From Eledone cirrhosa (Eukaryota): DNA of 64,000 bases. Made by a program: the position numbers and the translations under genes. Shown in pieces: positions 2,965 to 59,820 of this stretch. Under the pieces are notes generated by a model. The model saw only the letters and a program-made list of their open reading frames with translations. It was not told the origin of the DNA and searched no databases. The stretch lies in the NCBI GenBank assembly GCA_964016885.1, contig OZ024742.1:220410001-220474000 (forward strand), read 5' to 3'. Within the stretch, counting starts at the first letter, position 1. Every line of letters begins with the position of its first letter.

Positions 2965-3049
<85 letters not shown>

Positions 3050-3241
3050 TAGATAATTTAATATATCAACTAACATAAGCGCACAGATGCACGTCCATGC
3101 CAGCAAATACACAGGTTATGTCATAGTACCTAGGTGGTTCAATGCAGGAGGATGCAGAACAATAATATAAAAGACGTAAAATAAGAAAATATTTTTTTAA
3201 AAAATTTTTTTAAATTTTTTTACTTACTTACTTAAATTTTC

Positions 3242-3323
3242 ACTCCAACTAATTAGTTTCTGCAATGGGATAAAGACAGTTACGTAATCCAACTGTCGAG
3301 AATTCATTGCGTCATCAGGGAGT
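3242..3323 (-). ncRNA. Type I hammerhead ribozyme
   Basis: Reverse-complement copy of 4337-4418. Confidence 0.8.
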
Positions 3324-4336
3324 CAATTCTCAGCTAAGTCTCCAGGCAATGCGCGGACACTGGCGGCTCATATAAAAATAATAATAATTCGGTAGATAGA
3401 ACAGCTGGCGAGGACTGGATTCCATGTACTGAAATTCTCACTGCTTCTAGTCAAATGGCCGATTCTAAAGAATCAATCACGTGACACAGAGGCTAGTTAG
3501 AAGGAATGGGATGGTAAGATGACTGACGCCTACTAACACCCCAAAAAATTTAGAAGTGGTTTTGGCAGGTTTGCTCGACAAATCAGTGATTTGGAGATAA
3601 ATATAGATAATTTAATATATCAACTAACATAAGCGCACAGATGCACGTCCATGCCAGCAAATACACAGGTTATGTCACAGTACCTAGGTGGTTCAATGCA
3701 GGAGGATGCAGAACAATAATATAAAAGACGTAAAATAAGAAAATATTTTTAAAAAAAATTTTTTTTTAATTTTTTACTTACTTAAATTTTCACTCCAACT
3801 AATTAGTTGGAGAAACTAATTAGTTGGAGAAACTAATTAGTTGCAGAAACTAATTAGTTGGAGTGAAAATTTAAGTAAGTAAGTAAAAAATTTTTTTTTA
3901 ATTTTTTTTTTAAATATTTTCTTATTTTACGTCTTTTATATTATTGTTCTGCATCCTCCTGCATTGAACCACCTAGGTACTATGACATAACCTGTGTATT
4001 TGCTGGCATGGACGTGCATCTGTGCGCTTATGTTAGTTGATATATTAAATTATCTATATTTATCTCCAAATCACTGATTTGTCGAGCAAACCTGCCAAAA
4101 CCACTTCTAAATTTTTTGGGGTGTTAGTAGGCGTCAGTCATCTTACCATCCCATTCTTTCTAACTAGCCTCTGTGTCACGTGATTGATTCTTTAGAATCG
4201 GCCATTTGACTAGAAGCAGTGAGAATTTCAGTACATGGAATCCAGTCCTCGCCAGCTGTTCTATCTACCGAATTATTATTATTTTTATATGAGCCGCCAG
4301 TGTCCGCGCATTGCCTGGAGACTTAGCTGAGAATTG

Positions 4337-4418
4337 ACTCCCTGATGACGCAATGAATTCTCGACAGTTGGATTACGTAACTGTCTTTATCCCATTGCAG
4401 AAACTAATTAGTTGGAGT
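4337..4418 (+). ncRNA. Type I hammerhead ribozyme
   Basis: Stem I ACTCC/GGAGT; core CTGATGA (4342-4348); stem II GCAATG/CATTGC plus GACAGTT/AACTGTC; GAAA (4400-4403); palindromic stem III CTAATTAG; GUU cleavage triplet ending at 4413. Confidence 0.8.
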
Positions 4419-4480
4419 GAAAATTTAAGTAAGTAAAAATTTTTTTTTAATTTTTTAAAAAAATATTTTCTTATTTTACG

Positions 4481-4516
<36 letters not shown>

Positions 4517-4520
<4 letters not shown>

Positions 4521-4729
4521 GAAGAATGATAAAATTTCAAGCAAAGAGTTTAATTAGGTAATGACTTACAAATTTGTTTCAGTATATATTTAATATAATA
4601 TTAATATATTTTGTAATATTATTAACTAATTATTATAATTAGCGCTTCAGGCTTTGTCTATATACTGAAACAAATTTGTAAGTCATTACCTAATTAAACT
4701 CTTTGCTTGAAATTTTATCACTCTTCGTT
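4517..4729. repeat. ~72-bp inverted repeat (fold-back) with hammerhead 3' half
   Basis: 4517-4588 is inverted at ~4659-4729. The arms contain GAAA-CAAATTTG-TA (palindromic stem III-like). Confidence 0.8.
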
Positions 4730-4849
4730 TTGAATTTCTCCTAAGTATTCAATACTCTGTTGAGAAATACATTTTACATAAACAGTCTTTGTACCATTTA
4801 TACGGTATTAATTACTTATATTTATATATATATATATATATAGCGTATG

Positions 4850-4981: not shown

Positions 4982-5009
4982 TATATATGTTTAAATATAT
5001 AGTGTAGCT

Positions 5010-8000
5010 GTGATGTATCTCGCGAGTGAATCGAGACCTGTCACTGATTTTGGTGTCCCCACTGCCGATGTGAATGAGCAACGCTGCACTTGTGAATTGG
5101 GTCTTGATGTTGCAGGCAGTTCATATACTTACAATGATGCGGTCCCACAAGCTTGTTCACATTCCTGTGCTAATAATCTAGATGGGCGTATTAAATTGGA
5201 TGTGAAAGCAGCTTACCGGATGCGGAATCGGGAGAAGTTGAGACAAAAACAGGCCGATTATAGAGCTGTGAATTTTGCTAAATTAACACAAAAACAGGCC
5301 AAGTATAGATGTTCAAAACGGTATGAGTTGGCAAACAAGCAGGCCAAGTATAGATCTGCAAATTCAGCTATTATATCTCAAAAGCAAGCCGAGCGTAGAG
5401 CTTCTAAACGTACCGAGTTGGCTAAAGAGCAGACCAAGTACAGATCTGCAAATCAAGACAAAGTATTACAAACAAAGGCTATGTATAAAATTCACCATAA
5501 AGATAATATACAGTCTTATGAGAAAACATACTATAAAAAAAAGTTTCTTCATAAGCGGTCTTTGTATCAAATGAAGAAACTAAATAAAATGGTTGACTTC
5601 CGGATGCAGCATCAGATCTTGATGTCCCAATTTGTTAAGTCATATAAAAAGACAATAACAGATACCAATCTTCGCAACGACGCACATAGTCACGTGCTGA
5701 GTGTGTTCTCCAGATCTGTTGGGATGCGAAATTTTGTGTGTGCTCAATTAAAAATAAATGTTAAAGCTGTGCATACATTGATGGAAAAGGTCAATGCTAA
5801 CGGTTTGTTGCATTATTGGGGAAATCAACATTATCACAGTTCCACCAATGAGCTTCCTAATTTTGACAAGAGCACTGCAAAGTACATGAAAATGGATGAG
5901 TTTAAAAATCAGTCCGTTGAGAAAGTCCGAATAGTCGTTATCAATAATGAGGAGACAGACAACATTGTGAATGACATGGCTAATGCTGACGAGCAGAATG
6001 ATGATAATGATGTGTCTAAATGTTTGGTTAGACCTCGCGGGTCTTCCATATTAGATACATGTCCAAATGACTCAGCTGCTCGTCTAACTTTGTGCCAAAG
6101 AATTGATGATAAACTTCCAAAACTCAATCCCGATATGACAGTTGCTGAAATAAGGCAGTTGATCGAGAAATATGAGTTTTGCAATGTTACTCATGATAAT
6201 GATCAGCACTGCATCGGTAAAACTGGCTGCACCAGTGAATTTGGCTTTTTAAAATCCATAGCAGTTCACTCGCCAAAGTTGCGCACATTGCTGAGGAAAA
6301 TTTATAAAGTTCGGTCCTTATGTATTTGGCTCAACAAGTACAATGAAGCTGTTTTCAATGGCGATTGGACCAACTTTGAGAATTTGACAGACGTTGCCAA
6401 CATTGAGCGTGCTATTGCAGTTAAATTCAATAATATGTGCACTGGTTTCAATGATGTCGAACACACTGATGCAGATGTCATTCATAAATATGGTAATCAA
6501 GTTCAAAGATTTCAATCTGAAATTACCAACTATAAAATCCAACATTGTCATATCTGCAAACTGCGCAAATATAGCAAGGAACTAAAAGTTTGGGATAATT
6601 GGAACTCTAGATATTTTAAAACGGCCGTTGCAAAGGATGCAATAACTGCCAACTACTCTTTGCCTTGCACAGTCTGCACAACATGCACTACACATTTGCG
6701 CAACAGTGGGGTGCCTTCAATGGCCTCAATAAATGGCTTGGGCGTTGCTGCCGTTCCCAAAGAACTTGCTGATCTTAATACATATGAGCGAATACTTGTA
6801 CAACGGGCCAAATGTTTCGTCAATGTAATAAAACTGGTGCCATACTCATTCAAAGGCAATATTTCAGCATGCATTTCCGCTATTAAAGGAATTGCAATTC
6901 ACTTGCCTTTGCCTATGGACGGAACTATTAACCGCACCATGGATACGTTACCTGCGCTTCAAGACGACATGCTTAAAATAGTCGTTGATAGCTTGCCTTC
7001 GCGGAAACAAATTATCTGGCGTTCAATGGTAGACATGAGTAAAGTATTGAAGGCACTTGATTGGCTTGCAGCAAACAATGTAATGTATGCCGATGTTAAG
7101 ATCAATCGCTACGCCGATACGGAAAATGAAAACATTGTCGAGTGCTCGGGAGTTAATAATGCCAAATTCGATAATCTTTTAGTTAAATCGAATGCTGGCA
7201 TTACCTATGAGCATCACACTGTTAGAGACATGAATCCGTGTCTCCCTGCAGACACTGACTTGGCCTTGTACAAAATGAAAAGAGTGGAAGGCGATTTTAT
7301 TGCAGACAATGATAAAAAACTTGAGTTGTTGTGCTTTCCTTGTCTTTATCCAACTGGTCAGTTTGGCATTTTCGTGGACAATAGACCGTTTGGCGCTGTA
7401 AAGCCATACATGTTCATAAGAAACAGACTGAATCATAGCGACTCTAGATTTCGGCGAGATATACAATATCTCATGTTTTGTCTTGATAAAGCCGACAAGA
7501 GAGGCATTGATTCTGGTATATATGCCATCATGAAGACCACCAAAAACAGCCGCATGACTATAAGCGAGTTTAGAAGGCGGCTCCATGAAAATGACAGGCA
7601 CCTAGAGGGCAATTTAAATATGATGATGGCCAATGTTCGTGGTTCCAAGCAGTTTTGGTCTAGAAAATGTTCAGACTTGATGGCTATGGACGAGAAATTT
7701 GGCCCGGCCCACTTGTTCTTAACTTTGTCTTGTGCAGAGTACTTTTGGCCTGATCTGAGAGAGTTCCTGGAAAAGTTGAATGCTGACATACCAGACATTT
7801 CTAGAAAACGCACCAATTAGTTGTGCGCGGATGACGTGGTGGCTGTTAGCGAACATTTTCACCATCGGTTCACCACCTTTATGAAAGAAGTTGTTAAACA
7901 TACCAATTCTCCGTTTGGTATTGTCGAGCACTTTTTTTAGAGGTTGGAATACCAAATGAGAGGTGCTCCGCATGTTCACATGAAATTATGGATTAAAGAT

Positions 8001-11000
8001 GGCCCTATTATGGACAGAGACGACAACTATGCTATTCAGACGTTTATACAGTCCATGATCACATGTCGCATGCCGTCCAATGTAGAAAGCCCCGTTTTGT
8101 CAGACTTGGTGTTGCGTTTTCAACGACATGTCTGTAGTGGATCCTGCAAAAGGCAAATATGTTCGAGTGGTCGTTTTTACACTCGATGCAGGTTTGGATT
8201 TCCTCGTCCTATCGGGAATTTCAATTTGCTTAGCGTCAACGAGTGTATAAAATCTCGACACAAAGGTAGAGCTGTCAAAAAGTTGTACAAGCTTGACAGA
8301 CGACAAGGGGAAGAGTGCATCAATGACTACAATCCTGTTGTTCTGTATGTCTGGAAAGCTAATGTCGATATCCAATACATCGGTGAAGATAGCATGATTC
8401 TAAACCGATATGTTACTAGTTATCAGACAAAGTCCGAAAAGACTGAAACTGAAGGTATTTGGGCTGAGATTGACAAGTCCAAGTCCATTTACTCCAGATA
8501 CAAGAGTGTCGGACTTAAGCTGATGGGCAAGCGTGATACAGGTGCCTATGAGGCTGCAGACAAATTGCTTGGCCACCATTTTTATGGATGCTCTGAAAGC
8601 CTCATTTGGATTGGAGCCGATTTGCCTAGTTACCGATCCCACAGGTTCAGGCCTCAGTATGAACTGGATAAATTGAAACCGTATTCTACCGATCTTTATT
8701 ACGAGAATATGGTCGAAAATTGGTATCCAAACAGGCCTGATTCGATGGAGCACATGTGTTTGTATGAACTTGCGAGTAAATACGAACATGTGAATCCAAT
8801 TGGTAACAGCAATTTTGATGACGACTTCAGGTTGAGAAATAATCTTGGCTATTTCAAATCTGTGAAAGAGCGGATTGTGAAGTCGCCAAACATTAGATTG
8901 ACTGCAGATACCTGTGATCGCTATCACCACAACCTGCTTATGCTCTTTAAATCTTGGCGAGACGAGGAAAAAGACTTGCTGGGAGGTTGTGAGACTTATA
9001 AAGAGTCTTTTGAACAGTGCGCAAACCATTTATCTGAAATGGTCAGGTTCCAGAATGTGCGCAAACGTTTGGAGAATGCGCTGGAACAAGCCAAACATAT
9101 TCCAAACGAACCTCAGTCTCATGATAATGATGACCATTCTTGCGGTGATCACATGGAGGCGTTGGCAGTTGATGATGCTAATGTCGATTTGCCTTGCATG
9201 AGAGATGTCGCTGAGGATGCACTGAGGCATAAAGAAAATAAACTGAATGAAGTGCAAAGAAAAATTTATGACGATATCGTTGCCGGTATTGACAAACAAG
9301 ACAAACATTGGGACAACAGCAAACCTTATCCGAGATGTAGTTGCGATGATTGTCCACAAGTCTTGAAATTTGTTTCAGGTGTTGGTGGCACGGGCAAGAG
9401 TTTTTTGATAAATGTACTGGCTGATAAAATTCAGTACATGTATCCAAATGACAATGGCCCGAGCGTAGTGATATCGGCACCCACAGGAATGGCTGCTTTC
9501 CAACTCAACGGCATGACTGTTCATCGAATGCTAAAGCTCAAAGTGCAGCACGGTAAAACTCCCGTGTACGATGATCTACCAAAGGACTTTTTGAAAATGC
9601 TGAGGATGGGGCTTCAATATGTCCGACTGATCATAATCGATGAGATTAGCATGGTCAGTCATTTGCAGTTGGCATTCATTCACTTGAGATTGTGCCAATT
9701 GTTTTGTGACTTTGCCCAAGGCATTTCTCCTTTCGGGCGAATGAACATTGTTGTTTTGGGAGATTTGCTTCAATTACCGCCTGTTAGAGAAAAGCCGGTG
9801 TTTAACAAAGTTACTCACCAAGATGCACAAAGATCATGCATAGGAGTCAGCAGCCACCATTTGTGGAGGTACTTCAAGTACGACGAGTTGACAGTCAACA
9901 TGCGTCAGAAAGAAGACTTGGATAATTATGTTGACATGCTCGGCCGAATAAGGCTGGGTTCACCACTTGATTCAGATATTGAAATTCTAAATAAGCATAG
10001 AATTGATCTCAACGGCAAAGCTTCCATTGATCAGGTTGCTTACAAAATGTGTGAGCTGATACAGACTTCTAATTTGAGTATCGTCTGTGTCATGCCTCTA
10101 AACGAGTCAGTAGAAAAGTTTAACGCTGCAATGCTCAATAAACTTGGCATTAATACCGTTGAACTTATGGCTATTGATTCGAATATGAGGCAAACCAAAT
10201 GTCAAAAGAAAACAAAAAGAAAAAAGCTGACCACTAAAAAGACTTCTGATACTGCTGGCCTTGAAACTGTTCTTAAAGTTGGCGTTAATGCTCGAGTTAT
10301 GCTTAAACGCAACATCGATCTTGAGAAAGGCTTGTGCAATGGTGCAATGGGAACTGTAAAGCAACTCAATTATGAGTTTGGAAAAATGACTTCCATTGAC
10401 GTTCTCTTTGAGAGTACAAACCAAATTGTTGCCATCAAACGTGTCAAAGCCGATTACGAATTGTCTCCTAGTGTTTTTATCACTAGAGAACAATATCCCT
10501 TGTGCATTGCATATGCAATTTCCATCCACAAATCACAGGGAATAAGTGTCGATGGAGTCGTTGTTGATTTGGGCACTGGCGTTTTTGCAGACGGTATGGC
10601 CTATGTAGCCTTGTCTAGAGCCCGCAAACTGTGCAATGTTTACTTGATTGATCTTGATCCAACGAGTTTGATCATGTGCGACTCTAGTGCTTGGAGAGAA
10701 TACAATTATTTGAGAGAGACCATTAATATGGGACCGCTTCCATTGTGTAACGTGAGGCCCAACAGTATTGGACAGGCCAAAAAAGCAACTAAAAAAAGTA
10801 AATTTGCTATTAATATTGACAGTGGAATGGTCAACTTGGCGAATCCAAAAAAGGCCAGAACTGAGAAAACGGTTGCAAAGCCGTACATTTCGCTGATCAA
10901 TGAGAGAAATGCTTGCTTTGTAAACAGCACCATGCAAGTTATACGCCAGCTGGTGTTGTTGGTTGAACACATTCAGTCCACTGATGATGTTGCTATTCGT

Positions 11001-11733
11001 GAAATTAGCGATATTATATCGTCATCTGGAACTAAATCGGTCGCAAATTTGAGAAATATTCTCGGCGGCAGGTTTAATGATGGTACCCAACAGTGTGCGC
11101 ACGATTTTTGGAAGCACATTTATCAGTTGTTCTCTAAAAAAATTAAACAACTATTCACCTTTGAGGAAAATACTTGGCTCAGCTGCACTAGAAAACACGA
11201 GCACAATTGCCCCAGATTGCACAATGATGAATGTTATTGTGCATCGATCAACGGCTGTGGCACTTGCACACATATAACTGATGTCAAGTCTGATCTGACG
11301 TTGCAGCCTGTTAATGGTCGGCAGCAATTCAAAAGCTTGCTCAAAACTGATGTTTCGCTCATTAAGAGATGCGATCTGTGTGGCATTGACACCGAGCACT
11401 TTGGTACAGTTAACCATGTATTTCCAAACACAATGCGTTACTTGGTTGTTTATTTGAATAGATTCGAATATACAAACAATCAGATGATCAGAATTGATTC
11501 TGAGTTGATGAATTTCTCTCCGAACAAGCATCAGCATTTACGGCCAAAAATTCCGACTAATCGGCTCCGTCTTGCATTCACTGGCTAGTGCAGACTCCGG
11601 GCACTACACCAGCATCGTCCGCAATCAGGACAGATGGGACATTATTAACGATGCCGTCTTTTCCAAGCAGTATATAGGTTTCCCGTCGAAACTGCTTAAC
11701 AACTACCTGTTGTTTTTAGAAAAGTTGAATTGA
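5010..11733 (+). pseudogene. Helitron/Helentron-like RepHel (HUH Rep + PIF1 helicase) fused to a USP/C19 peptidase domain, disrupted
   Basis: ORFs 5010-7820 and 7944-11588 are in the same frame, separated by TAG 7818-7820 and TAG 7938-7940. Rep motifs HLFLTLSC, EYQMRGAPHVH, YVTSY. PIF1 motifs GVGGTGKS, APTGMAA, IIDEISMV, GDLLQLPPV, SIHKSQG, YVALSR. USP motifs NERNACFVNSTMQ, QQCAHDF, YLNRF, and after a +1 shift near 11527 GHY..W..ND..YLLFLEK* (stop 11731-11733). Confidence 0.9.
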
Positions 11734-23308: not shown

Positions 23309-23740
23309 ATTAGAATTGGTGCTCTGAAATAGCGATATATATATATGAATGTATACATAGTGTATTTTGCAATACACTGTATGCTTAATTAAAAGCATTT
23401 TGAAGACCTTACGCTATTGTTTTAAAGTAGTGACTATGTCACTTACTTCTTTTTTCAACAAACAAAGGGAGATAAGCTGACAGATCTCTGTTTCATACTG
23501 TTGGTATTCCTCAGAGCTTAGCACTCCCCTTGTTTGTCGAAAATTATGAATGTTGGATTCTTATAGAATCTTATAGAATCTCCCTTTGTTTGTTGAAAAA
23601 AGAAGAAAGTGACATAGTCACTACTTTAAAATAATAGCGTAAGGTCTTCAAAATGCTTTTAATTAAGCATACAGTGTATTGCAAAATACACTATATATAC
23701 ATTCATATATATATCGCTATTTCAGAGCACCAATTCTAAT
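23309..23740. repeat. ~160-bp inverted repeat enclosing a hammerhead (inverted pLTR-like)
   Basis: 23309-23470 is inverted at 23580-23740. Confidence 0.85.
23473..23520 (-). ncRNA. Type I hammerhead ribozyme
   Basis: TAAGCT-CTGAGGA-ATAC-caaca-GTAT-GAAA-CAG-agat-CTG-TC-AGCTTA; all three stems pair and the cleavage triplet is GUC. Confidence 0.8.
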
Positions 23741-23882
23741 ATATATATAGAGGTTATATTTAATTTGTTGGGATTCAACAAGTTTAAACATTTTTATAAC
23801 TGATATAAAGCACTCAACAAGTTAGTGGAGTAAATATACAATATATTAATAAATGGAAACTATATTTATAAAAACATAATTA

Positions 23883-23944
23883 TTTTATTATATATATTTC
23901 AAGGGCGACCAAGGTAAATTATGGTGTGCTTTCATCAGATAAAA
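23883..23944 (-). ncRNA. Type I hammerhead ribozyme
   Basis: TTTTAT-CTGATGA-AAG...CTT-GAAA-TATATA-TA-ATAAAA on the minus strand. Confidence 0.7.
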
Positions 23945-24120
23945 TACAGATTTGTTTTATAAATAAATATTGATATACCCGGAAAAAAGACAACCTCAAC
24001 GGTTGAAATTCGTGGATAGTGGAGATAATTGAGGGTGATACAGAGTTGTGAGTGAGTATGCAAATGAGTGTCGGGAAAATTGAAAAAAAAAACGGTTTAT
24101 TTAAATTAAACTGTTGGAAG

Positions 24121-24302
24121 AAAATAGATGTAAAAGGGAGAGAGACAAGATAGATGTAAAAAAGTAGAGAGACAAGATAGATGTAAAAGGGAGAGAGACA
24201 AGATAGATGTAAAAGAGAGAGAGACAAAATAGATGTAAAAGGGAGAGAGACAAAATAGATGTAAAAGGGAGAGAGACAAGATAGATGTAAAAAAGGAGAG
24301 AG
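24121..24302. repeat. ~26-bp purine-rich minisatellite
   Basis: About 7 copies of AGATAGATGTAAAAGGGAGAGAGACA, grading into GA-rich low-complexity DNA. Confidence 0.85.
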
Positions 24303-25769
24303 TAAAAAGATTGAGAGGGAGAGAGATAAAGAGAAGAAAAAAAAGTTGAGAGAGAGAGAGATAGAGAGAGAAAAATATATTGAAAGGGAGGGAGATAGAA
24401 TAGTGAGATGGGAGAGAGAAGAGAATAGAGAGAGAAAGAGAGAGATAGAAGAAAAAAGAGAAAAGATATAATATTGAGAGAGAGTGAAGGAAAGAACAAA
24501 TATTGAGATGGAGAGAGAAAGAAAAAATTATTGTGAGGGAGAGAGAAAAGAATGTTGAAAAAATATTGGAAAAAGAGGGAGAAAGAGTAGTGAGAGGGAG
24601 AGAGAAGAAAGAGAAAGAGAAAGAGGGGAGAAGTGAGTGAAGAAAAAAATTTATATAGGTGAGTATTCAGAATGTAAATATATTATTCGTCGTTATGTTG
24701 TGTTTATATTACTTATAAAGGTAAAGTTAAAAAGTTAAATTAAATATTGATGAGAAATCTTTACAAAAGAGTATTGTTATAATTTAGTTAAAAATTTAAC
24801 CAGAATTTTAATTAAAATTTAATTAGAATTTAATTAAAATTTAAATAATTACAATAAGATATATTACAAAAAGAAGTATTTAAAATTTATTAAGATGTAT
24901 TAATACTATATAGGTTTAGATGGGTATTTTATGTTATAGGTTATAAATTATTTGAATGTATAGTATTTTACATTGGAAAAAAAAAACCAGGTATAGTTTA
25001 ATTGATTAAAGTAAGTTTGGCAAAATTATATTTAGCCAGAGTTTATTAATAGTTGTAAGTTAAATCTTAAACATCAAATATTTATGAAGATTTACGAGAG
25101 TTTAGAAAGGAAAAATTATTTAATTAGGAGTATATATTAAAACAGTTTACAGTTTCGACTATAAATTAAGACTATAAAGATTGAGATAATAAAAACAATA
25201 AGGAAGTTTAAAGGAAGTTAAAAATTGATTTTTTTAAAACCCAAATGATTCAAGGATAGATAAAAATCACTACGAAAGTTATAAGAAGTTATAAAAATTC
25301 ATCTTAAAATATAATTAAGATATGATTAAAATATAAGACATAATTATTGCACATATATATAAAAATAATATAAATGATTAGATATATATGAAAATACATA
25401 AGTATTAAAAATAGTTGGATATATAAGAAAATACATAAGTATTAAGCATGTTTAGAATATGTAGGGGGTAATGGAAATTCATATCTTTCAAAAGAACCTT
25501 TCAGAAATTTAATCATAAGTTTTACAAAAATTTCCAAGAGGTGTTTCGAAGGAAATTTTTAGAATTTTTCAAAATATTTTCATAAAAGAATTTCTGGAGA
25601 GTGCAATAATATAAGTATTAGAAAGTAAAGGTTTTAAGGAGTAAATTAAAATTAAAATTAATAAGTGTACTTTATATATTTAGGAATGTTAGAAAATATA
25701 TAATCTGAGGAAAGAGATTATATGTGTTTGGATGGAGACAAACGTTATGTAAGGAGGAATGAACATATA

Positions 25770-26230
25770 TTACATTTTATATATATATCTAAAAGTTGAG
25801 TTTAACCGATGTTTACAAGAACTAAATAAATTATTCATCAAATTAACAGAGTTCTTAGATTTTAGTATAAAGAATATTTCCTCTACACAAAGGCTACAAA
25901 ATTTGGATAAAGCTGTGTAGCATGGTGCTTTGGAGACAATTTTCCAAGATAAAGAGTAGTTTATATTCATGGATTTTAAATTCCATAATAAGTTGGATAG
26001 AGAATTTGAAGATTTCTTGGTAATATTCGTAAAGGTTATTGAAACGAGATTTGAAGTCTGTCGAAGTAGAGCCGACATAGTTGAAGGAATTATCTTTGGT
26101 TTTTACATTACAATTGTATACTATATTTTTAACTAAACAGTTATTATTTAGAGGACAGTTAAATTTATTTCTACAATTACATTTATCGGAATTTATATTA
26201 TTGGGAGCTGTATCATTATATTGGATATTG
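25770..26230 (-). mobile_element. Penelope-like GIY-YIG endonuclease fragment
   Basis: CNCRNKFNCPLNNNCL..IVY..YVGST..FKSRF, then after a frameshift LSNLLWNLK..WKIV..CSLCVEE. The AT-rich 3' region runs toward the hammerhead at 23883-23944. Confidence 0.8.
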
Positions 26231-29059: not shown

Positions 29060-31032
29060 TCGTTACCAAATGGGACTGAATAACTCGGTGAAGTCATCAG
29101 TATTGATACGTAACAAACTAGTAGGTTCCTTAGTGTCTGCTGGCACACGCGGCTCTGGTCAGTTGAGGACTTCCTTGAAATGTTCAGCCCATCTGACTAA
29201 CTTTTCTTCACCCTTGGAAAGCAGCGTACCATCTTTCGCTTTCACCGGGCCTGAGTTAGCTCTAGAGCTGCCGGTGATTTTCTTGGCAATTTGGTACACA
29301 GAGCGCATGTCATTGCGTGCCGCAGCTGCTTCTGCCTCCTCTGCCTTACTCTCAAGCTACATTCGTTTGTCCTTTTGGGCGCTGCGTTTGACCTCCTTGT
29401 CCTTCTCAACATACTGCTGATATACTTTGATGGCCTCTGGGGTAGTGGCATGCCTCTGCTGGTGTAGGGCTTTCCTTTCATTAATCAGCTGCCAGGTGTT
29501 GTCGCTGACCCAAGCTTCTCTGAGGGACTTCCTGTAGCCCAAGATTTCTTCCCCTGCAGCTTCCATGGTCTTCTTCATTTCCTCCCACCAATTGACCGAG
29601 CCTGGTGCAGACTCCTCAAGGGCAGCAAATCTGTTCCTCAAAGCAGCCTCGAACTGTGCTTCTATGTCACCGTTCTTCAGCTTGGTAGTGTCAAAACGCC
29701 TTGTAGTGGGTGCTTTCTTCTTCTGCTTCCTCAGTCTGATTTTAAGTTTGGTAACAGACAGATAGTGGTCACTGCAGACATCTACGCCTCGGTAGACTCG
29801 GACGTCCTGCAGGCAAGGAGCTCTCCAACTTGGGCCAATCGCAATGTGGTCTATTTGCGTCTTGGTAGATAAAGAATGTCGTTCGAAGCCCATGTGATCT
29901 TGTGGATGTTCTTGTGGTCAAATAGTGACGAGCCGATTTTCATATTGTTCATGGCACAGAACTGGACAAACCTGTCCCCGTTGTCCGTGCGGTTTCCATA
30001 AGCATGGGGCCAAGGACATGTTCAAAGCCAACTCTGCTTCCCCCGATCTGTGCTTTCATGTCTCCCATGATGATCAGGATGTCATGACGTGGGGTTTTGT
30101 TGACAACATCTTGTAGTTGCTGGTAGAAAGCGTCCTTATCATCGTCGCTATGTTCGTTGGTTGGAGCATAGCACTGAGCTATGGTGACCCTTGCATGTGA
30201 TGTGGTGAATCTTGCTGTCATTGGGCGTTCGTTGATAGGAGTCCACTCCTCAAGGACACTACTGGCAGCCCTGTCCATGATGATTACAACTCCATCTCGG
30301 TGGATCCCGTTCTGACGGCCTGAGAACTGGATGGTCTTGCTTTCATGGACAAACTTCCCAGAGTCTGTCCAGCGGACCTCGCTGAGGCCCAGGATGTTAA
30401 TTTTGTAGGCCTCCATTTCTCCGATAACTTGCGCAAGTTTGGATGGTTGGTACAGAGTTCTTATGTTCCAATATCCAATACGTGTGGTTGTTTTTGCAGA
30501 CAGAATTCTGGTCCTCAGGATGTCGGCTTCCTCATCGAGACTTTCGCCGACACCCGTCACACAATCTCCGGTTAGAGACAACCGTTCTCCTGACTGCTTG
30601 GAATTTGAATCTGATGCACTATGAATTGTTTTCGTAGCAGGAGAGTTTTTCCGGAAACAGGTCGCTGACCTGAAGTCCAACCACTGACATTTAGTAAAGA
30701 GACAGTAAGTGGAGTATTCTCTGGTAGAACTGCAAACCGATGGCCACGGAATATGGTGTGGGTCGCCTTCAGTCCTGGACCGGTGCCGAGGGAGGATTTC
30801 CTTCTGCTTTAACCAGTGGCTTCTTTGTTGAAGCTCATACGCCTAGTGGTGCCGTGTCAATACCACCCCCTCACGTGGTTCAGTCCACCAGCTGAAGCGG
30901 TGTGCCGGGGCATGGCGATTGGAGCCACACGTGAGAGATTTAGGGGATGGGTGGGGGCCCGTGATGACTGACCACCCTACCAGTTAGGGTGCAGCTGTCA
31001 ACTATCAAGGGTACTACCACTGCCCAAGCCCC
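29060..31032 (-). mobile_element. RTE-clade LINE, 5' UTR and APE domain (RT absent)
   Basis: YWNIRTL, GLSEVRW, CYAPTN, GDM.A, QIDHI and SDH endonuclease motifs across frameshifted ORFs; ends near AEHFKEVLN. Confidence 0.9.
30869..31032 (-). ncRNA. HDV-like ribozyme at RTE 5' end
   Basis: P1 GGGGCTT/ATGCCCC; P2 CTCACGTG/CACGTGAG; P3 GGC/GCC with L3 TCCAATC; P1.1 GG; P4 CACC..GGTG; J4/2 CTGA. Confidence 0.65.
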
Positions 31033-46414: not shown

Positions 46415-47502
46415 TAGAGTTGAGATGGAGGGTTTGTGGTTTTTCTCACATCTGGTTGCTCTTTGAATGTTACTTGTTTTATATGGAAAAAAGTGGCTCG
46501 AAACGCCAGGTTTTTAGAGAAGAATTTTGATTGATTGGTCAATAAGTATAATAAATTTCGCGCCAGTTCGCGTTACAAAGTTCTTCAAACAAGGGGGGGG
46601 GGCTCAGGTTGTTTTTTCATATATGAGTGTTTGAATTTCTTTTTACTTAAAAAAAGGGGGCTCACGAAGGCTTTTTTTTTTAATGTAATTTGATTGGTTA
46701 TAAATAAAATTATGGCTGTCACGTGAACAAGTTCATTAAATTCGCACCCGTATTTGGGAATTTATTTTGTAGTCTTTTAGAGAATTTTATGACAATAAGA
46801 AAAGTTGCTCACGAAGGCGTTTTTGTTTTTTTAATGTAATTTGATTGGTTATAAATGAAATTGCGGATGTCACGTGAACAAGTTCCGCGCCCGTATTTGG
46901 GAATTTATTTTGTAAACTTTTAGAGAATTTTATGACAAGCAAAAGAATGGTCAAGAGAAATGGGATGGGAGAATTGTTCTGGTTCAGTGAATATGGCTAG
47001 TTCGCTGGGGTGTCAGAGTTCAGATTTTCTATTGAAATAAAGAAAGTAGACATGTGTATGTTTATTTGTGTGTGTGTGTCTGTGTGTGTATAGGAAGATG
47101 ATTCTATTGGTAGAAATGGGGGAGGGAGTTGTGTGTGTATGGGTGTTATGTGTGTGGGGGGGTGGGAGTATGTTAAGATAGAGAGAATATATATATTTTG
47201 TGTAGGAAAGTGGTTCTATTAGTAGAAATGGGGGAGGGGGTTGTGTGTGTGTGAGGGGGGGGGGGGGTTATCTGTGTGTGTATGGGTGTTATGTGTGTGG
47301 GAGTTTGGTTAGCATGTTAAGATGAAGAGAATATATATTTTGTGTGTGTGTATGTGTGTGTTTAGGAAAATTATTCCGTTAGTAGGAATATTTTTGAATG
47401 AACATATTTTCTTTACTTATTCGTATTTGTTCTGTTGTATTGTCAGCGCAAACGTATGTTAACGTTTATTTAGTTCGCGTTTTTATTTTCTAAAGTAGGT
47501 GT

Positions 47503-47626
<124 letters not shown>

Positions 47627-49479
47627 GATGGTTAGCATGTTATGGTGTTGACATAATGCATATTAAACCATATTTAATGCTGGTCTATATTTTTGAATAA
47701 ACATATTTTCCTTATTTATTCGTATTTGTTCTGTTGTATTGTCAGCGCAAAGGTAAAATGGGAAGACTTGGAATTTGGGTGTCTTATTACTTGCGCAAAT
47801 GTCTAGATGTGCGCTTAGTGATATCTGTCTCGTGGTTGGATCTCGTAATTGTTGGCGATGAACTGTCATTCTATTTCTGAGTGTGAGTTTAGTTTGTCCT
47901 ATATAATCTTCATTGCATCCTTTACATGGTATAAAATAGATTTTTTTGATGAGCAAGTGAAGTGATTTTTTACAGCAAAATTTTGTCCTGATTTAAATGT
48001 ATACGTGTTGCCTTCAATGAGGTGAGTGCAGGTTCCACAATTAGAGCGACCACATTTTTTGACAGTTGGGTTGTGGGTTTGTGGTAGGTAATTTGGCATT
48101 GGTGAGTAATGTTTTTAGTGATTTCGGTATGTCTTTTGCTTTTGATTATTTTGTGTGTTTCAAGGGCTTTTTTCATTCTTGGGTCTTGTTTCAGTAGTGG
48201 GATGTTCTTGTGAATAGTGTTGTAAGCTTCCGCATTTCTTGGGTTGTGTGTTGAGATATATGATAAAATATTGGACGTACCTTGAATTTGTTTCTGTTTT
48301 CGTAATTCATCAATGATTATTACTTTAGCCCTTTCTATTCCATTATTTATTAGTAATGGTGGGTACTGACTTTCGAGTAGAATCTCCTTTAATTCTTGAA
48401 GTCTTTTATTTCGCGTTTCATAATTGGAGACAATTGTGCAAATTCTTCTTGCTAGGTTAAAAGGAATGTTCGTCTTCGTGTGCTTTGGATGGTTGGGGGT
48501 GAATAGCAGGTATTGTTTGGAATCTGTTGGTTTGTAGTGTATGTCAGTTTCAATATTTGTGCCTTTTTTAAGATTAAGATGTCCAGAAATGGGAGTTGAT
48601 CTTGGCTGTTTTCCATTGTGAATTGGATGTGGTTATTGATGCCGTTTATTAAATTTTTGAAATCATTCAGTTGATCGAGTGTGTGGGGCCAAAGATTGAG
48701 ACAATCATCCAAGTAGCGTTTCCAATTTTCTGATAAATATTTGTGGAAGTTCAATTCGTATTTTAATTTGGACTATTCATAAATCTAGACTTCCAAGTAT
48801 GCCATGACTAAGTTGGGATAAGTCGGAGCGGCTTTTGTACCCATCGCAGTCCCCGATATTTGCTTGTAAGTACTGCATCGAAATCAAAAAAGTTGTTCTG
48901 TAAGATAAATTTTAATCCCTCGGTGATGAAGCTTTTTTTTATTCTGCCAGGTATGTCATTGGGATATTTCTCTAGGTTTAATATACATTATGTCAACACC
49001 ATAACATGCTAACCATTCAAACAGACACATACACACATAACATCTTCTACTTTAGAAAATAAAAACCCGAACTAAATAAAACTTAACATACGTTTGCGCT
49101 GACAATACAACAGAACAAATACTAATAAGTAAGGAAAATATATTCATTCAAAAATATTCCTACTAACGGAATCATTTTCCTACACACACACACACACACA
49201 CACAGACACACACACACACACACACAAAATATATATTCTCTTCACCTTAACATGCTAACCATACTCCCACACACACATAACACCCATACACACACACATA
49301 ACACCCGCCACACACAACTCCCTCCCCCATTTCTACTAATAGAATCACTTTACTACATACACACACACACAAAATATATATATTCTCTCCATCTTAACAC
49401 ACTCCACACACACACACATAACACCCATATACACACACACCAACTCCCTCCCCCATTTCTACCAATAGAATCATCTTCC

Positions 49480-49604
<125 letters not shown>

Positions 49605-50248
49605 AAATAAACATACATATGTCTACTTTCTTTATTTCAATAGAAAATCTGAACTCTGACACCCCAGCGAATTAGTCATATTCACTGAACCAGAACAATT
49701 CTCCTATCCCATTTCTCTTGACCATTCTTTTGCTTGTCATAAAATTCTCTAAAAGGCTACAAAATAAATTCCCAAATACGGGTGCGAAATTTAATGAACT
49801 TGTTCACGTGACAACCGCATTTTCATTTATAACCAAGCAAATAACATTTTTTTTTTAAAAAGCCTTCGTGAGCAACTTTTTTTATTGTCATAAAATTCTC
49901 TAAAAGGCTACAAAATAAATTCCCAAATACGGGCGCGAAATTTAATGAACTTGTTCACGTGACAACCATAATTTCATTTATAACCAATCAAATTACATTT
50001 TTTAAAAAAAGCCTTCGTGAGCCCCTTTTTTTTAAGTAAAAAGAAATGAAAAAACAACCTGGACCCCCTCTTGTTTGAAGAACTTTGTAACGCGAACTGG
50101 CGCGAAATTTATTATACTTATTGACCAACCAATCAAATTACTTCTCTAAAAATCTGGCGTTTCGAGCCACTTTTTTCCATATAAAACAAGTAACATTCAA
50201 AGAGCAACCAGATGTAAGAATAACCACAGACTCTCCATCTCAACTCTA

Positions 50249-55559: not shown

Positions 55560-58500
55560 GACAGACAACGCGATCAGTCGCATATTTTGGCGTGGGAGAC
55601 TATTTATTAAATTTAAGATGAATACTATCTCCGATAGTAATGCCACAACTACAGCCAGGTTGAATAACTGGTTATTCTTCTATCTATCCCTTCTGAAGAA
55701 ACCTTTTATTCGAATTCGTAGAGATATCCGACTAAATACATAATTCATTTTACAAGGATTTGCTACAAACAGCATGGCCGAACACAACATCAACAAAAAA
55801 ATTAAGGAAGTACCGAAGACAAATAACAAGGAAGGTAATCAAACTTTATTCAGTTGCAGCTACAGAAGAAACCGAAATTATAAATCGCATTTCTCTTGGA
55901 ATTGCGAACTTAATAATGATTTATTTAATTGTTATAAAATGGCAAAAAACAATCCCTCCATTGGCTATATGAGTAGAATGAAGCTACACTGGGACGAAAT
56001 GCACCCAGAGCTAAATTATTTCACAGCGAAACAATTACGCCAGCAAGCGACGTTTGCTGAACGTAAAAATAAGATAAATATTATTAATTGTAAGTCACCA
56101 ACAACAAACATGTTATCAACAACACGTGCTACATGTCGCCATGCTACTAGACTTCCTAGCAGCCAGGTCGAACAGCGCCTTGAAACAACTATGCCTGTAA
56201 GAAACTTGACACCACTTGTACCATCTAAGTCTACCTCGAATGCTGGGGAAAACACTATCGATAATAATAATAATCGAATAAATTTGACACCATGTGTACC
56301 ATCCGAGTCTACCTCGACTGTTGTGGAAAATACTATCGATAATGATAATCAAAAGTATAAACAATTGAAAATTTCCCTCAACGAAATCTTCCAGAGAGAA
56401 ATTAACTCATGTATAAATATCTCTCTTGCTGAACGTGTTAATACGACAATGTTGAATAAAAAACCAAATAATGAAATACTACGTGTTATTGATGAAATAG
56501 GGGATGAATATTTACGACGGATAAAAACCCCAACATTTTGGCAAATCAACGCCTCTTTATATGCCCTAGCAACGACAGTGAAGCATTATCTTGGTGATAG
56601 CAGAGATATTAAAAAGAGCAAAACACCACCAAAAATACCATCATATATAACTAAAATAGAAAAAAAGAATGCTGACCTACGAAAAAACATAGGATATGTG
56701 ACAATGCTCTTTACATGCAAACAAACACAAAAAGAACTCACTCCTCACCAACAAAGAGTGAAAAATAAAATAGAGACAATGTTTGGTAACAGTATAACCA
56801 TAACTCTCCAATATAAGCTGATCACCCTCAAACAAGAATTGAGAGCTGTTAGCGAAAAACACCGATACCTGAAGAAGGTAGATGAGAGAAAAGTGCTTAA
56901 TAAAAGATTCAGACGAAACCAAACATCAGTCTATAGAGATATGAAGGGCAAAATAATTGTTTCTACTATTGGCACAAGGCCAGCAATTACCCAGTACATT
57001 ACTGGTACTTTATTTTATCGACCCCGTAAGGATGAAAGGCAAAGTTAACCTCGGCGGGATTTGAACTCAGAATGGCAAGGGCCGTAACTCTATGCGTCAA
57101 AGCATGGCGTCCGACCCTCTACCGATACTGCCAACTCACCAATAAGTGTCACTGAGGCCCCATCCCAGAAAGACAGATTCCGTTTGGAGAAAAAAATGGG
57201 GTGAAAAGAAGAATTTCAACAAAGATGCAGTGTGGCTAGAGAAATCCGAAAGAACTATTGCTCCTACACTACAACAAAAACATACGAAATAAGTGAAGGT
57301 ACCCTTGAGACTGTGATAGGAAAACTCCAAGATAAGAAAACACCAGGAAGAGACATGATTGTCGGCTACTGGTACAAAAAACTGATATTCTATCGGAGGT
57401 ATCTTACTGACCTCTACCAACAAGTTCTTAAGGGAGATACACTTATACCAGAATGGTTGACATTAGCACAAACATTACTGGTCCCCAAGAACGAAGACAC
57501 CCACTTGGCAAAAAACTACCGACCCATTGCATGCCAGAACCTGATGTATAAGATGTATACAGCCTGTCTGAACCTATTCCTCCAAGATCACTGTGAAAAT
57601 AATAACATCATCACAGATGAACAAGCAACTGGAAAGAAAGGGTTTTGGGCTGAACAACTCCTAATCAACAAAACTGCGATGTCGGAGGTGCGATAACTTA
57701 GGAGGAATATGGCTACAGTCTGGCTAGACTACAAGAAAGCTTTCGATTCTGTTCCCCACTCTTGGCTGATAGAGGCCCTCCAACTTGCTAAAGTCCCAGA
57801 CATTATTGTCAGAGCCATAGAGAGGCTGTCTTCTTCTTGGGCTACTATCCTAAGGTTAAAGACAGAGAGGGAGGACTCTATTTTCACTGATAAAATAAAA
57901 TATTGCAGGGGTATATTTCAGGGGGACAGTCTCTCTGTGATATTATTCATCTTGTCATTAAACCCCTTGTCCTTTCTGCTCAAGAAATGTGAGGGATACA
58001 TCATTGGCTCACAGGAGGACAGAAATACGAACCTAACCCATAATTTCTTTGTGGACGATCTGAAACTCTATGCCAAGAACATGGATGAGATGAAGAAAAA
58101 TCTTGACCTGGTTACAACGTTCTCAAAGGATATAGGAATGGAGTTTGGCCAAGATAAATGTCCATATATGACTGTAAAGCGGGTAAAAACAACAACCCAA
58201 TCTAGCAACATTGTCATCAATGGCCTAACTGTTTCACTGATATCTGATGAGGACTGCTACAGATACCTGGGGATAGATGAGAACATATCCTATAATGGTA
58301 TCTGTAATAAAGAACGCGTAACCAGGGAATACTACACCCGATTAAGAAAGATCTGCTCATCGGAACTCTCTGCGCAAAACAAAACAGTGGCTCACAATGT
58401 GTTTGCTGTGCCTGTCCTAACACCAACGTTTGGCATACTCAATTGGACGATAGACGAAATCCGAGCAGTTGATGTTGGAACTCGAAAAGTACTGAACAAC

Positions 58501-59820
58501 ACCGAAACTTCCACATCAACAGTGACATAGACCGCCTTTACTTGAAACGTAAGCAGGGAGGCAGAGGCCTAACATCAGTCCAGACAACATTTGAATGTCG
58601 CATCATATCTCTCCGACATCTACGAACCTCGAAGTGTAGGAGCCCGTCTCTCGAGCAAGTCTATCTGCATGAAACAGATAAGATCATGAGAGTTGGGAAG
58701 GAGCTCCTTGAGAAATATTCCCTGTGTGATAATCAAAAACTCACACCCAGGGATGTCGCTCAGCAGTATCTCAGTGAATCCATGGATGAAAAACTGCATG
58801 CCTATCAGCAAAATATCATGCATGGATATGTTGCCAGAAAGCTCTAGAGTGAGAGTAATATAGATAAGGAAAGTAGTCTATCTTGGACCAACAACCGCTA
58901 TATTGACTCCCACCTTGAAGGATACGCTTTTGCAATCCAGGAACAGGAGATTAGCACGAAATACCTGATTCACAAAAGAGATAGGGATGCAGGCAAAGCA
59001 CCTAGATGTGATAACAAGTGCAGACTCTGCAGAACTAACATCGAGGATATCACCCATGTCATCAGCAGCTGTCCAAAGATGTCATCGCGGCACTATCTAC
59101 CTATGAGGCATGATGTAGTGGCCAAAACACTGTACAATGCAGTTCGTAAAAAAGATAGCCCCGATAATAAACACATTAAAAGCTACAACAATGTGGAAGA
59201 CATCCATGTACATAATATGAAAGAGTATTGGTGGAATGTTCTAGTAAAAACCCCAATAAAATGCAGTTATAACAGACCAGATATTATGATATAGGACAGG
59301 GAGAAGAAAACATGCACAGTAGTGGAAATTAGCTGCCCAGCAGATGCCAATATAATATCAAAGATTAGCGAAAAGGAGAATATTTATGCAGAACTGATGA
59401 GAAATCTGCAGATACTCCACCCTGATTACACCTTCAGATTTATGCCTGTGGTTATTGGGGCACTGGGATATGTTAGTAACTGCCTCAATACAAATCTTGA
59501 GAAGTTAGGCTTCACAGGAATAGAAAGAACACAACTAGTTAGGACATTACAAGTAAAATCCATTAATGGAACAGTAAAAATGTGTAAAACATTCCAAAAA
59601 TTTTCCATATAATAACTGCATATACACATGTACAGATACAAACTATATATACATGCACACATACAACTCAAAACATACACATCCATATCTACACATGCAT
59701 GCATACATACATATCTACCTAGTTGATGTGTAAATTCCAATGAGAGAGTATTGTGTCTATGTTAGAAACCGACTCTCTCTCTATTGGTAAAACTTTGTGA
59801 AATTATAAGACCAGAAGAAC
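55560..59820 (+). mobile_element. Near full-length R4/Dong-like RLE non-LTR retrotransposon (disrupted)
   Basis: KNYRPI, WLDYKKAFDSVPH, GIFQGDSLS, FVDDLKLY, YRYLG, GGRGL, CCHC, RPDI and EISCP over successive ORFs. Bounded by CATA/CAGA repeats. Confidence 0.9.
56952..57140 (-). mobile_element. Nin-domain SINE inserted in the R4-like ORF
   Basis: Accounts for the C-terminal IIVSTIGTRPAITQ...DERQS of ORF 55774-57048. Confidence 0.9.

Follow-up and report, generated by a model that had tools for sequence, protein, structure and literature searches.

A head-to-head insertion of a non-coding, putatively Penelope-type hammerhead retrozyme in a (TA)n microsatellite of Eledone cirrhosa

The window analysed here, a 64,000-nt stretch of the Eledone cirrhosa genome on a 379-Mb contig without N, carries two divergent arms of one non-coding 554/550-nt unit between approximately 3047 and 4490, as delimited by repeat and motif analysis (Table 1). 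The inverted arms (3224-3760 and 3900-4436) are 99% complementary over 537 nt, and the direct repeat at the locus has a spacing of 554 nt. Each arm holds one complete type I hammerhead plus one 3' half, with GUU/GGAGU sites at 3859|3860 and 4413|4414 on the plus strand (554 nt apart) and at 3797|3796 and 3247|3246 on the minus strand (550 nt apart). This confirmed the arrangement proposed by an earlier, sequence-only reading of the window: a ~554-nt non-coding unit in two divergent arms, complete hammerheads at 4337-4418 (+) and 3242-3323 (-) with a 3' half in each arm, and plus-strand cleavage positions 3859 and 4413. Of the arm limits given in that reading, the plus end at ~4490 stood, lying 82 nt past the unit, and the minus end at 3166 was replaced by ~3047, as this arm runs 204 nt into the next unit.

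Table 1. Coordinates of the element, its ribozymes and its target site (window positions).
Position	Strand	Feature
2968..3046		Left (CT)n/(TA)n microsatellite, target site
3047..3808	-	Minus arm: palindrome/half ribozyme, one 550-nt unit, 204 nt of next unit, 'long' end
3047..3163	-	~122-nt 'tail', unit positions 83-204, confined to the minus-arm end; two hairpins predicted
3242..3323	-	Complete type I hammerhead motif; predicted cut 3247|3246
3792..3808	-	Hammerhead 3' half: palindrome, GUU, stem I 3' strand; site 3797|3796
3797..3863		Junction of the inverted arms: 17-nt repeat, 3.9 copies, based on and including the stem III palindrome
3841..4490	+	Plus arm: half ribozyme, one 554-nt unit, 82 nt, 'short' end
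3860..4413	+	Monomer unit between successive cleavage sites; GC 37%; stop-free frames of at most 53 codons
3942..4063	+	Internal tail copy: GUUC..GAAC hairpin plus long hairpin
4337..4418	+	Complete type I hammerhead motif; predicted cut 4413|4414
4337-4341/4414-4418	+	Hammerhead stem I
4342-4348	+	Hammerhead core
4350-4355/4393-4398	+	Hammerhead stem IIa
4363-4369/4379-4385	+	Hammerhead stem IIb
4403-4412	+	Hammerhead stem III palindrome
4486..4517		Right (TA)n microsatellite, target site

The two arms differ at 2 of 438 scored positions and in a hypervariable A/T tract, in keeping with the earlier view that such near-identical arms are recent, and minority alleles at two sites are common to both. 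(TA)n, which the sequence-only reading did not mention, abuts both outer ends (2988-3066 and 4486-4517), and the flanks of the two arms are not mirror images of each other (no BLAST match). No ORF combining RT and GIY-YIG, the mark of an autonomous Penelope-type element (PLE), was found in or beside the element; the neighbouring ORFs at 4995-11588 (+) are unrelated to it and belong to a Helitron Rep/PIF1 helicase, in two long frames (941 and 1215 aa); 45-nt repeats were seen N-terminally, and a UCH peptidase match at the C-terminal side is weak.

Other mobile sequences were seen in the window. Directly to the right of the element, 4517-4842 contains 72-nt inverted arms (4517-4588/4659-4730, 99%), the right one extending some 90 nt more into (TA)n; the arrangement resembles a second, very small PLE-type insertion in head-to-head form, one end short and the other long, in the same microsatellite. 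A Hydra-type PLE remnant (23850-26230, -; EN region 26229-25773) includes a hammerhead motif at 23938, downstream of which the sequence matches the 3' end of the coding family. A Neptune-like PLE fragment at 46660-50032 (47388-49157) has 151-nt tandem repeats on both sides and is apparently inverted, and frames with RT (RVT_1) and weak AP-endonuclease matches at 55744-58530 (+) and 29949-30842 (-) are probably LINE pieces. Further hammerhead-like motifs lie at 23514 (-), 32487 (+) and 53733 (+), the last two near Hydra-type EN fragments, and one inside the Helitron ORF (9211, +) is probably due to chance.

The complete motif consists of ACUCC, CUGAUGA (at 4342 on the plus and 3318 on the minus strand), an unpaired C, a 6-bp helix, a 7x7 internal loop and a 7-bp helix, followed by an unpaired A, GAAA, the palindrome ACUAAUUAGU, GUU and GGAGU, with a stem I of 5 bp. 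Fold z-scores were -3.1 for 4330-4425 and -2.8 for the whole unit. An Rfam search of the window at gathering thresholds returned no match, hammerheads included. The stems were examined in an alignment of 21 hand-picked variants, 20 of them from a set of 39 distinct variants and the last being the copy in the window. In this alignment 97.5% of 435 cells were paired under the hammerhead structure, compared with 35-47% in a control with slid partners, and both sides had changed in 7 of the 21 stem pairs (three in stem IIa, four in stem IIb). RNAalifold independently recovered stem I, stem IIa and most of stem IIb. The shuffle test of stem pairing is inflated by the relatedness of the sequences, and the core and stem III columns are invariant and thus provide no covariation evidence. 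The alignment supports the two-helix stem II as a genuine structure; the sequence-only reading had called this stem unusually elaborate and had named a lack of covariation among genomic copies as a refutation, and covariation is seen across subfamilies. The combination of compensatory change in stem II with an invariant core, in subfamilies only ~72% identical, implies selection on the ribozyme.

When folded alone, the stem III palindrome formed no hairpin, and as a duplex it reached -9.0 kcal/mol. The active monomer fold was predicted at -16.9 kcal/mol versus -21.6 kcal/mol for the minimum-energy fold, which sequesters the core. Since the palindrome pairs only as a duplex and the core is sequestered in the minimum fold of the monomer, cleavage is predicted to depend on a dimer, and on these models we regard this as probable. 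The GUU triplet is a weaker hammerhead cleavage site. Dimer-dependent cleavage has been described for PLE hammerheads (PMC4209133, PMC6765202, in the portions available), and in the available text of a 2026 preprint one of nine retrozyme dimers tested was cleaved (10.64898/2026.07.22.740005). Ribozyme cleavage is dispensable in vitro for PLE insertion (PMC11167929).

The family is large. A pattern of 18 nt that covers stem III plus the cleavage site had 12,272 exact matches in the genome and none for the reversed control. A search of the 3.0-Gb genome with a 486-nt query gave 1,820 first-look candidates, and among the 40 of these that were scored the best main-family copies were 98-100% identical over the length of the query. 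Sister subfamilies of 70-95% identity have units of 468-571 nt and the same two ends where examined. Copies are dispersed, with one to five units each, and tandem arrays reach four ribozymes. Two or more tandem ribozyme-end motifs were counted in 21 of the 79 arms sampled from the family; as some of the first motif copies are halves, this figure is an upper bound. Some copies lie within segmental duplications (L006-L010/L017 and L024-L026 in our numbering of loci). The A/T tract at unit positions 15-55 is hypervariable throughout the family and is of no use for distinguishing a circular from a multimeric template, as it varies even between segmental duplicates. Contigs of four public sequencing runs from three organisms, none of the runs recorded as RNA, also carry the family. 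No description of it was found in a literature search; the supplements of the 2026 preprint or of Craig 2021 might list it.

Elsewhere in the sampled loci, other hammerhead families with a long or mismatch-closed stem II and a palindromic stem III were seen (L126, L128, L129, L133, L135, L141). The genome has many PLE-type ribozymes, and the Rfam search detected none in the window.

The 3' ends of family copies fall at two fixed unit positions, 82 ('short') and 204 ('long'), and (TA)n was present at the 3' ends of nearly all copies viewed. The 5' ends are scattered; one of 79 arms ended at the cut site, and no pile-up at the cleavage site was seen among these arms, some boundaries of which are inexact where the BLAST alignment extended into (TA)n. 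A first end classifier typed the head-to-head loci as 11 long+short and one short+short, with three unresolved (p=0.003). A second, which also detects small second arms, gave 19 mixed against two same-ended loci (p about 1e-4), with 37 of 58 loci not typed at both ends and two compound loci set aside; its end signatures occurred in 2 of 400 control windows. The two classifiers disagree at L225 and L227. Among 20 loci of a coding Hydra-type PLE, selected for near-full ORFs, 13 were mixed, one was long+long and five were typed at one end only, one compound locus being left out. The pairing of a short with a long end holds in both the non-coding family and the coding Hydra-type PLE.

PLE insertions that have a 5'-truncated copy in inverse orientation, and at one of their ends a tail of 30-40 bp, are described in the available parts of PMC8557442 and PMC3846280; the latter, in the portion available, also states qualitatively that one of the inverted pLTRs bears the tail and notes palindromes at inverted junctions. 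In vitro, the PLE protein PAc was found to start reverse transcription at two sites that bound the tail and to nick and extend both DNA strands, and it was modelled as a dimer (PMC11167929). As inverted, tailed PLE insertions are already in print, the head-to-head form is standard, and the special status that the sequence-only reading gave to the head-to-head dimer falls away, the architecture being common in the family. What is added over the printed accounts is the count showing one start site per arm; a literature search did not find such a count of the short+long rule.

Two hairpins are predicted in the 122-nt tail, a short one (GUUC..GAAC) and a long one, and their covariation is modest, at 3 of 25 pairs. 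Outside the main lineage, the tail-hairpin pattern had 731 matches (14 in the control) and brought up a second non-coding lineage and variants of the main lineage, and no coding owner of the motif was seen in the 30 loci inspected. The second lineage shares the short hairpin motif, on a 457-468-nt unit with a different, long-stem-II hammerhead and a GUA site; it was observed at L124:5500-6420 and L274-L301, as tandem and inverted copies in (TA)n with several hundred matches.

None of the PLE loci examined, a sample from the many PLE families of the genome, contained a coding PLE that shares the ribozyme or tail sequence of the unit. The GIY-YIG profile PF01541 yielded 10,596 first-look candidates in the genome, which carries a young, intact, (TA)n-targeting Hydra-type PLE (108 rows at 97-100% amino acid identity, many with frames of 738-745 aa). 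Also present are families that, from their motifs, we take to be Neptune-like and Poseidon-like PLEs. Three PLE ORF pieces had no match in Pfam, so that the Hydra label is drawn from motifs in the available text of PMC8557442 (RWK-like, DKT, CxCx5C, CxxC/CxH) and not from a tree. With the same target, the same end rule, a two-hairpin tail and many intact copies, Hydra-type PLEs are the best helper candidates, and we tentatively put forward the Hydra clade as the possible helper.

Several PLE loci had features of their own. The Hydra-type PLE at L091:1517-6245 abuts a retrozyme copy and has a textbook twin-priming-like structure, its forward arm starting at exactly the codon at which the inverted arm stops, with a 31-nt overlap. 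A PLE-type RT ORF at L092:5765-7414 contains a long asparagine-rich insert comparable to that of rotifer Penelope (PMC3846280, in the part available). The Neptune-like family at L124/L131 ends in (TA)n, and a motif scan of its 3' region found no hammerhead.

The proposal of the sequence-only reading that this is a non-autonomous, Penelope-type, hammerhead-bearing retrozyme is supported, and we consider the element very probably a non-autonomous PLE-type element. It is quite likely that the locus represents one recent insertion in (TA)n, copied in trans by the RT and EN of a PLE, likely from a circular or uncleaved multi-unit RNA. A helper PLE would nick both strands of (TA)n, and reverse transcription would be primed by one strand at position 82, the upstream start site, and by the other at position 204, the downstream one. 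Each cDNA would then make slightly more than one round of the unit, passing the cleavage junction, before the two cDNA ends were joined by microhomology, here presumably within the stem III palindrome, which is self-complementary, with slippage occurring twice. The 17-nt repeats at the junction likely arose when the cDNA ends annealed out of register several times; this junction is a special case in being centred on the palindrome; junction positions vary in other copies. Tandem loci with two to four complete ribozymes may be the sources of monomers or circles.

A more specific version of this scheme, which we hold to be possible and somewhat doubtful, is integration in a single step, with a dimeric RT-endonuclease priming on both (TA)n strands, one per start site, and rolling round a circular monomer. 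Dual priming on one circle would give a two-armed insertion with a short and a long end and units from one molecule, and the extended stem II and the tail hairpins, shared with the second, dissimilar retrozyme lineage, would be cis signals.

The trans-copying reading accommodates either a circular or a multimeric RNA template, as had been suggested from the sequence: copies read through the intact cleavage junction, 5' ends lie at the cut in one of 79 arms, and the units are near-identical. Divergence was measured on 105 segments of at least 93% identity from 45 loci, a small share of all loci, and was 0.77% within a locus versus 3.3% between loci. Most within-locus differences (64 of 73) are rare elsewhere. 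At 13 of 35 multi-segment loci, rare variants occur in every unit covering the site, and at L065 and L069 they span both arms. Such homogeneity and shared rare variants would fit copying from one monomer, as on a circle; a homogeneous linear parent array or gene conversion could also account for the homogeneity. On this pattern of variation we lean slightly towards a circular monomer as template.

One alternative is a variant of the preferred explanation and compatible with its first step. It takes linear, uncleaved read-through transcripts of tandem loci as the template, with no circle and with the hammerhead as a conserved but largely silent passenger. Unprocessed RNA was the main substrate in vitro and ribozyme mutants inserted normally (PMC11167929), the 5' ends lie away from the cut site, and the ribozyme core is predicted to be sequestered. 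However, compensatory change in stem II around an invariant core implies selection on the ribozyme, and the locus-wide rare variants and mostly private within-locus differences fit a single-monomer bottleneck. We regard this linear route as rather unlikely.

It is very unlikely that the unit is no more than a pseudo-LTR belonging to a coding PLE, rare or lost, with the copies as 5'-truncated remains of that element. Coding PLEs do have the same architecture, and the loci inspected are a small share of thousands. Linkage was assessed at 60 independent loci drawn in order of position from the first 100 pattern matches on one contig (61 rows, L210 and L211 being one locus and the cluster L233/L234 being counted once), and at none of the 60 was the unit the pLTR of a coding element, which rules out across this set the alternative that the sequence-only reading had singled out. 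PLE ORFs near these loci are separate insertions in the same (TA)n. At three loci a PLE ORF is joined directly to the unit without intervening (TA)n (L064/L091, L173, L266), as would be expected of a pseudo-LTR; these junctions are, however, explained as adjacent or chimeric insertions, and the PLE families involved each have a different natural 3' end, the join at L266 lying about 9 nt before it. At L173 (5760-7950) a (TA)n-bounded chimera links a 5'-truncated Hydra-type ORF to a sister retrozyme subfamily through 4 nt of microhomology, and may reflect a template switch or a later deletion; it is the only such case in 30 loci of that PLE family. Head-to-tail, ORF-free arrays of three to four units (L061, L065, L066, L263) indicate that the unit closes on itself, which also argues against a pseudo-LTR. 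The genome search suggested in the sequence-only reading, for tandem copies and a linked Penelope ORF, thus succeeded in its first part and, in its second, found no parent among the loci examined.

The candidates rejected as parents were the Hydra-type family at L064/L091 (with its own ~930-nt pLTR and a different ribozyme), L080 (a truncated RT ORF abutting an inverted piece), the Neptune-like neighbours at L048 and L131 (with (TA)n in between), L173 (the chimera, one of 30 loci), the Hydra-type elements at L237 and L249 (each with its own ribozyme, followed by (TA)n) and L266 (whose PLE family has its own 3' end).

Tandem arrays, within-locus homogeneity and the presence of some copies in segmental duplications would be expected of a satellite or minisatellite that had multiplied through recombination of DNA and resembled a ribozyme by chance. 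This reading is highly improbable, as the copies are dispersed and have one to five units, their 3' ends are fixed and lie in (TA)n, their 5' ends vary, and the ribozyme stem covaries. That the palindrome is an assembly or library fold-back artefact, to which long palindromes are prone, the public runs offering contigs and no read across the whole locus, is hardly credible, given that each arm stops at its own family-standard position (82 in one, 204 in the other), that the arms differ at two sites and in the A/T tract, have non-mirroring flanks that make fold-back unlikely and lie on a 379-Mb contig without N, and that the architecture recurs with varied junctions at many loci.

The present copy has likely reached a dead end. 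Folding predicts 91% pairing for an RNA transcribed across the locus, which would form a ~650-bp hairpin and may be a better source of siRNA than of circles. The half sites could be cut by a downstream core in a double hammerhead. With one complete ribozyme per arm and a through-transcript so extensively paired, the sequence-only description of a circRNA locus was not upheld, and we consider it improbable that this copy yields a circRNA. The locus itself is ordinary, one among thousands of dead-end copies. The family is a large, recently active retrozyme lineage with an unusual ribozyme stem, and it offers a countable footprint both of how inverted, tailed PLE insertions form and of whether retrozymes move via circles. 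If the single-step reading is true, the genome is a natural library of thousands of PLE/retrozyme integration events.

Like EN+ PLEs of the Hydra clade, as described in the available text of Craig et al. 2021 (PMC8557442), the family targets (TA)n and shows partial tandems, an inverted 5'-truncated copy and a tail at one end. It shares with PLE pLTR hammerheads a palindromic stem III, an unpaired base between positions 9 and 10.1, a G10.1-C11.1 pair and opposite-strand ribozyme pairs 100-700 bp apart (Cervera & de la Pena 2014, PMC4209133, in the part available). Unlike EN+ PLEs, the present unit has no ORF, and its tail of 122 nt exceeds the 30-40 nt given in the accessible portion of PMC8557442; the tail of the Hydra-type coding family in Eledone cirrhosa is about 85-100 nt. 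The pLTRs of the coding PLE families examined have no sequence similarity to the unit. Chlamys MRC1 is likewise a non-coding, pLTR-forming, head-to-tail PLE derivative, but elements such as MRC1 generally share 3' sequence with an autonomous partner (PMC8557442, as far as available), and no such partner was found for the present family.

The Poseidon PAc system in vitro (Frangieh et al. 2024, PMC11167929) resembles the family in that two internal RT start sites bound the tail, the DNA target is AT-rich, both strands are used and the cleavage junction is read through. The evidence here, in contrast, is genomic, and in it the two arms of one insertion each use a different one of the two sites; the present start sites are AU-rich with microhomology to (TA)n, whereas PAc starts without target homology (PMC11167929). 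The short+long rule is directly testable in this existing in vitro PLE system.

Metazoan non-LTR retrozymes, already read as non-autonomous PLE derivatives in the available text of the 2026 preprint (10.64898/2026.07.22.740005), are the closest comparison. In the sections available of that preprint and of PMC7229834, they share with the present family a non-coding tandem unit with one type I hammerhead per unit, GC below 45%, thousands of copies and co-occurrence with PLEs. The 554-nt unit is larger than the 170-400-nt circles of 2020 (Cervera & de la Pena, PMC7229834, available part) and falls within the span of 51-972 bp given by Li, Clavereau & Pollet 2026 (10.64898/2026.07.22.740005, available part). 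The present family differs from the retrozymes presented there in its longer stem II, where two helices flank a 7x7 internal loop, and in that most loci are dispersed short or inverted (TA)n insertions. Having one complete ribozyme per arm, the locus falls outside the definition of 'active' in the accessible text of that preprint (at least two consecutive complete ribozymes). At the level of the family, every feature of a metazoan non-LTR retrozyme that can be tested on sequence appears to be present, and the family would, on these features, be an additional retrozyme lineage within the known class.
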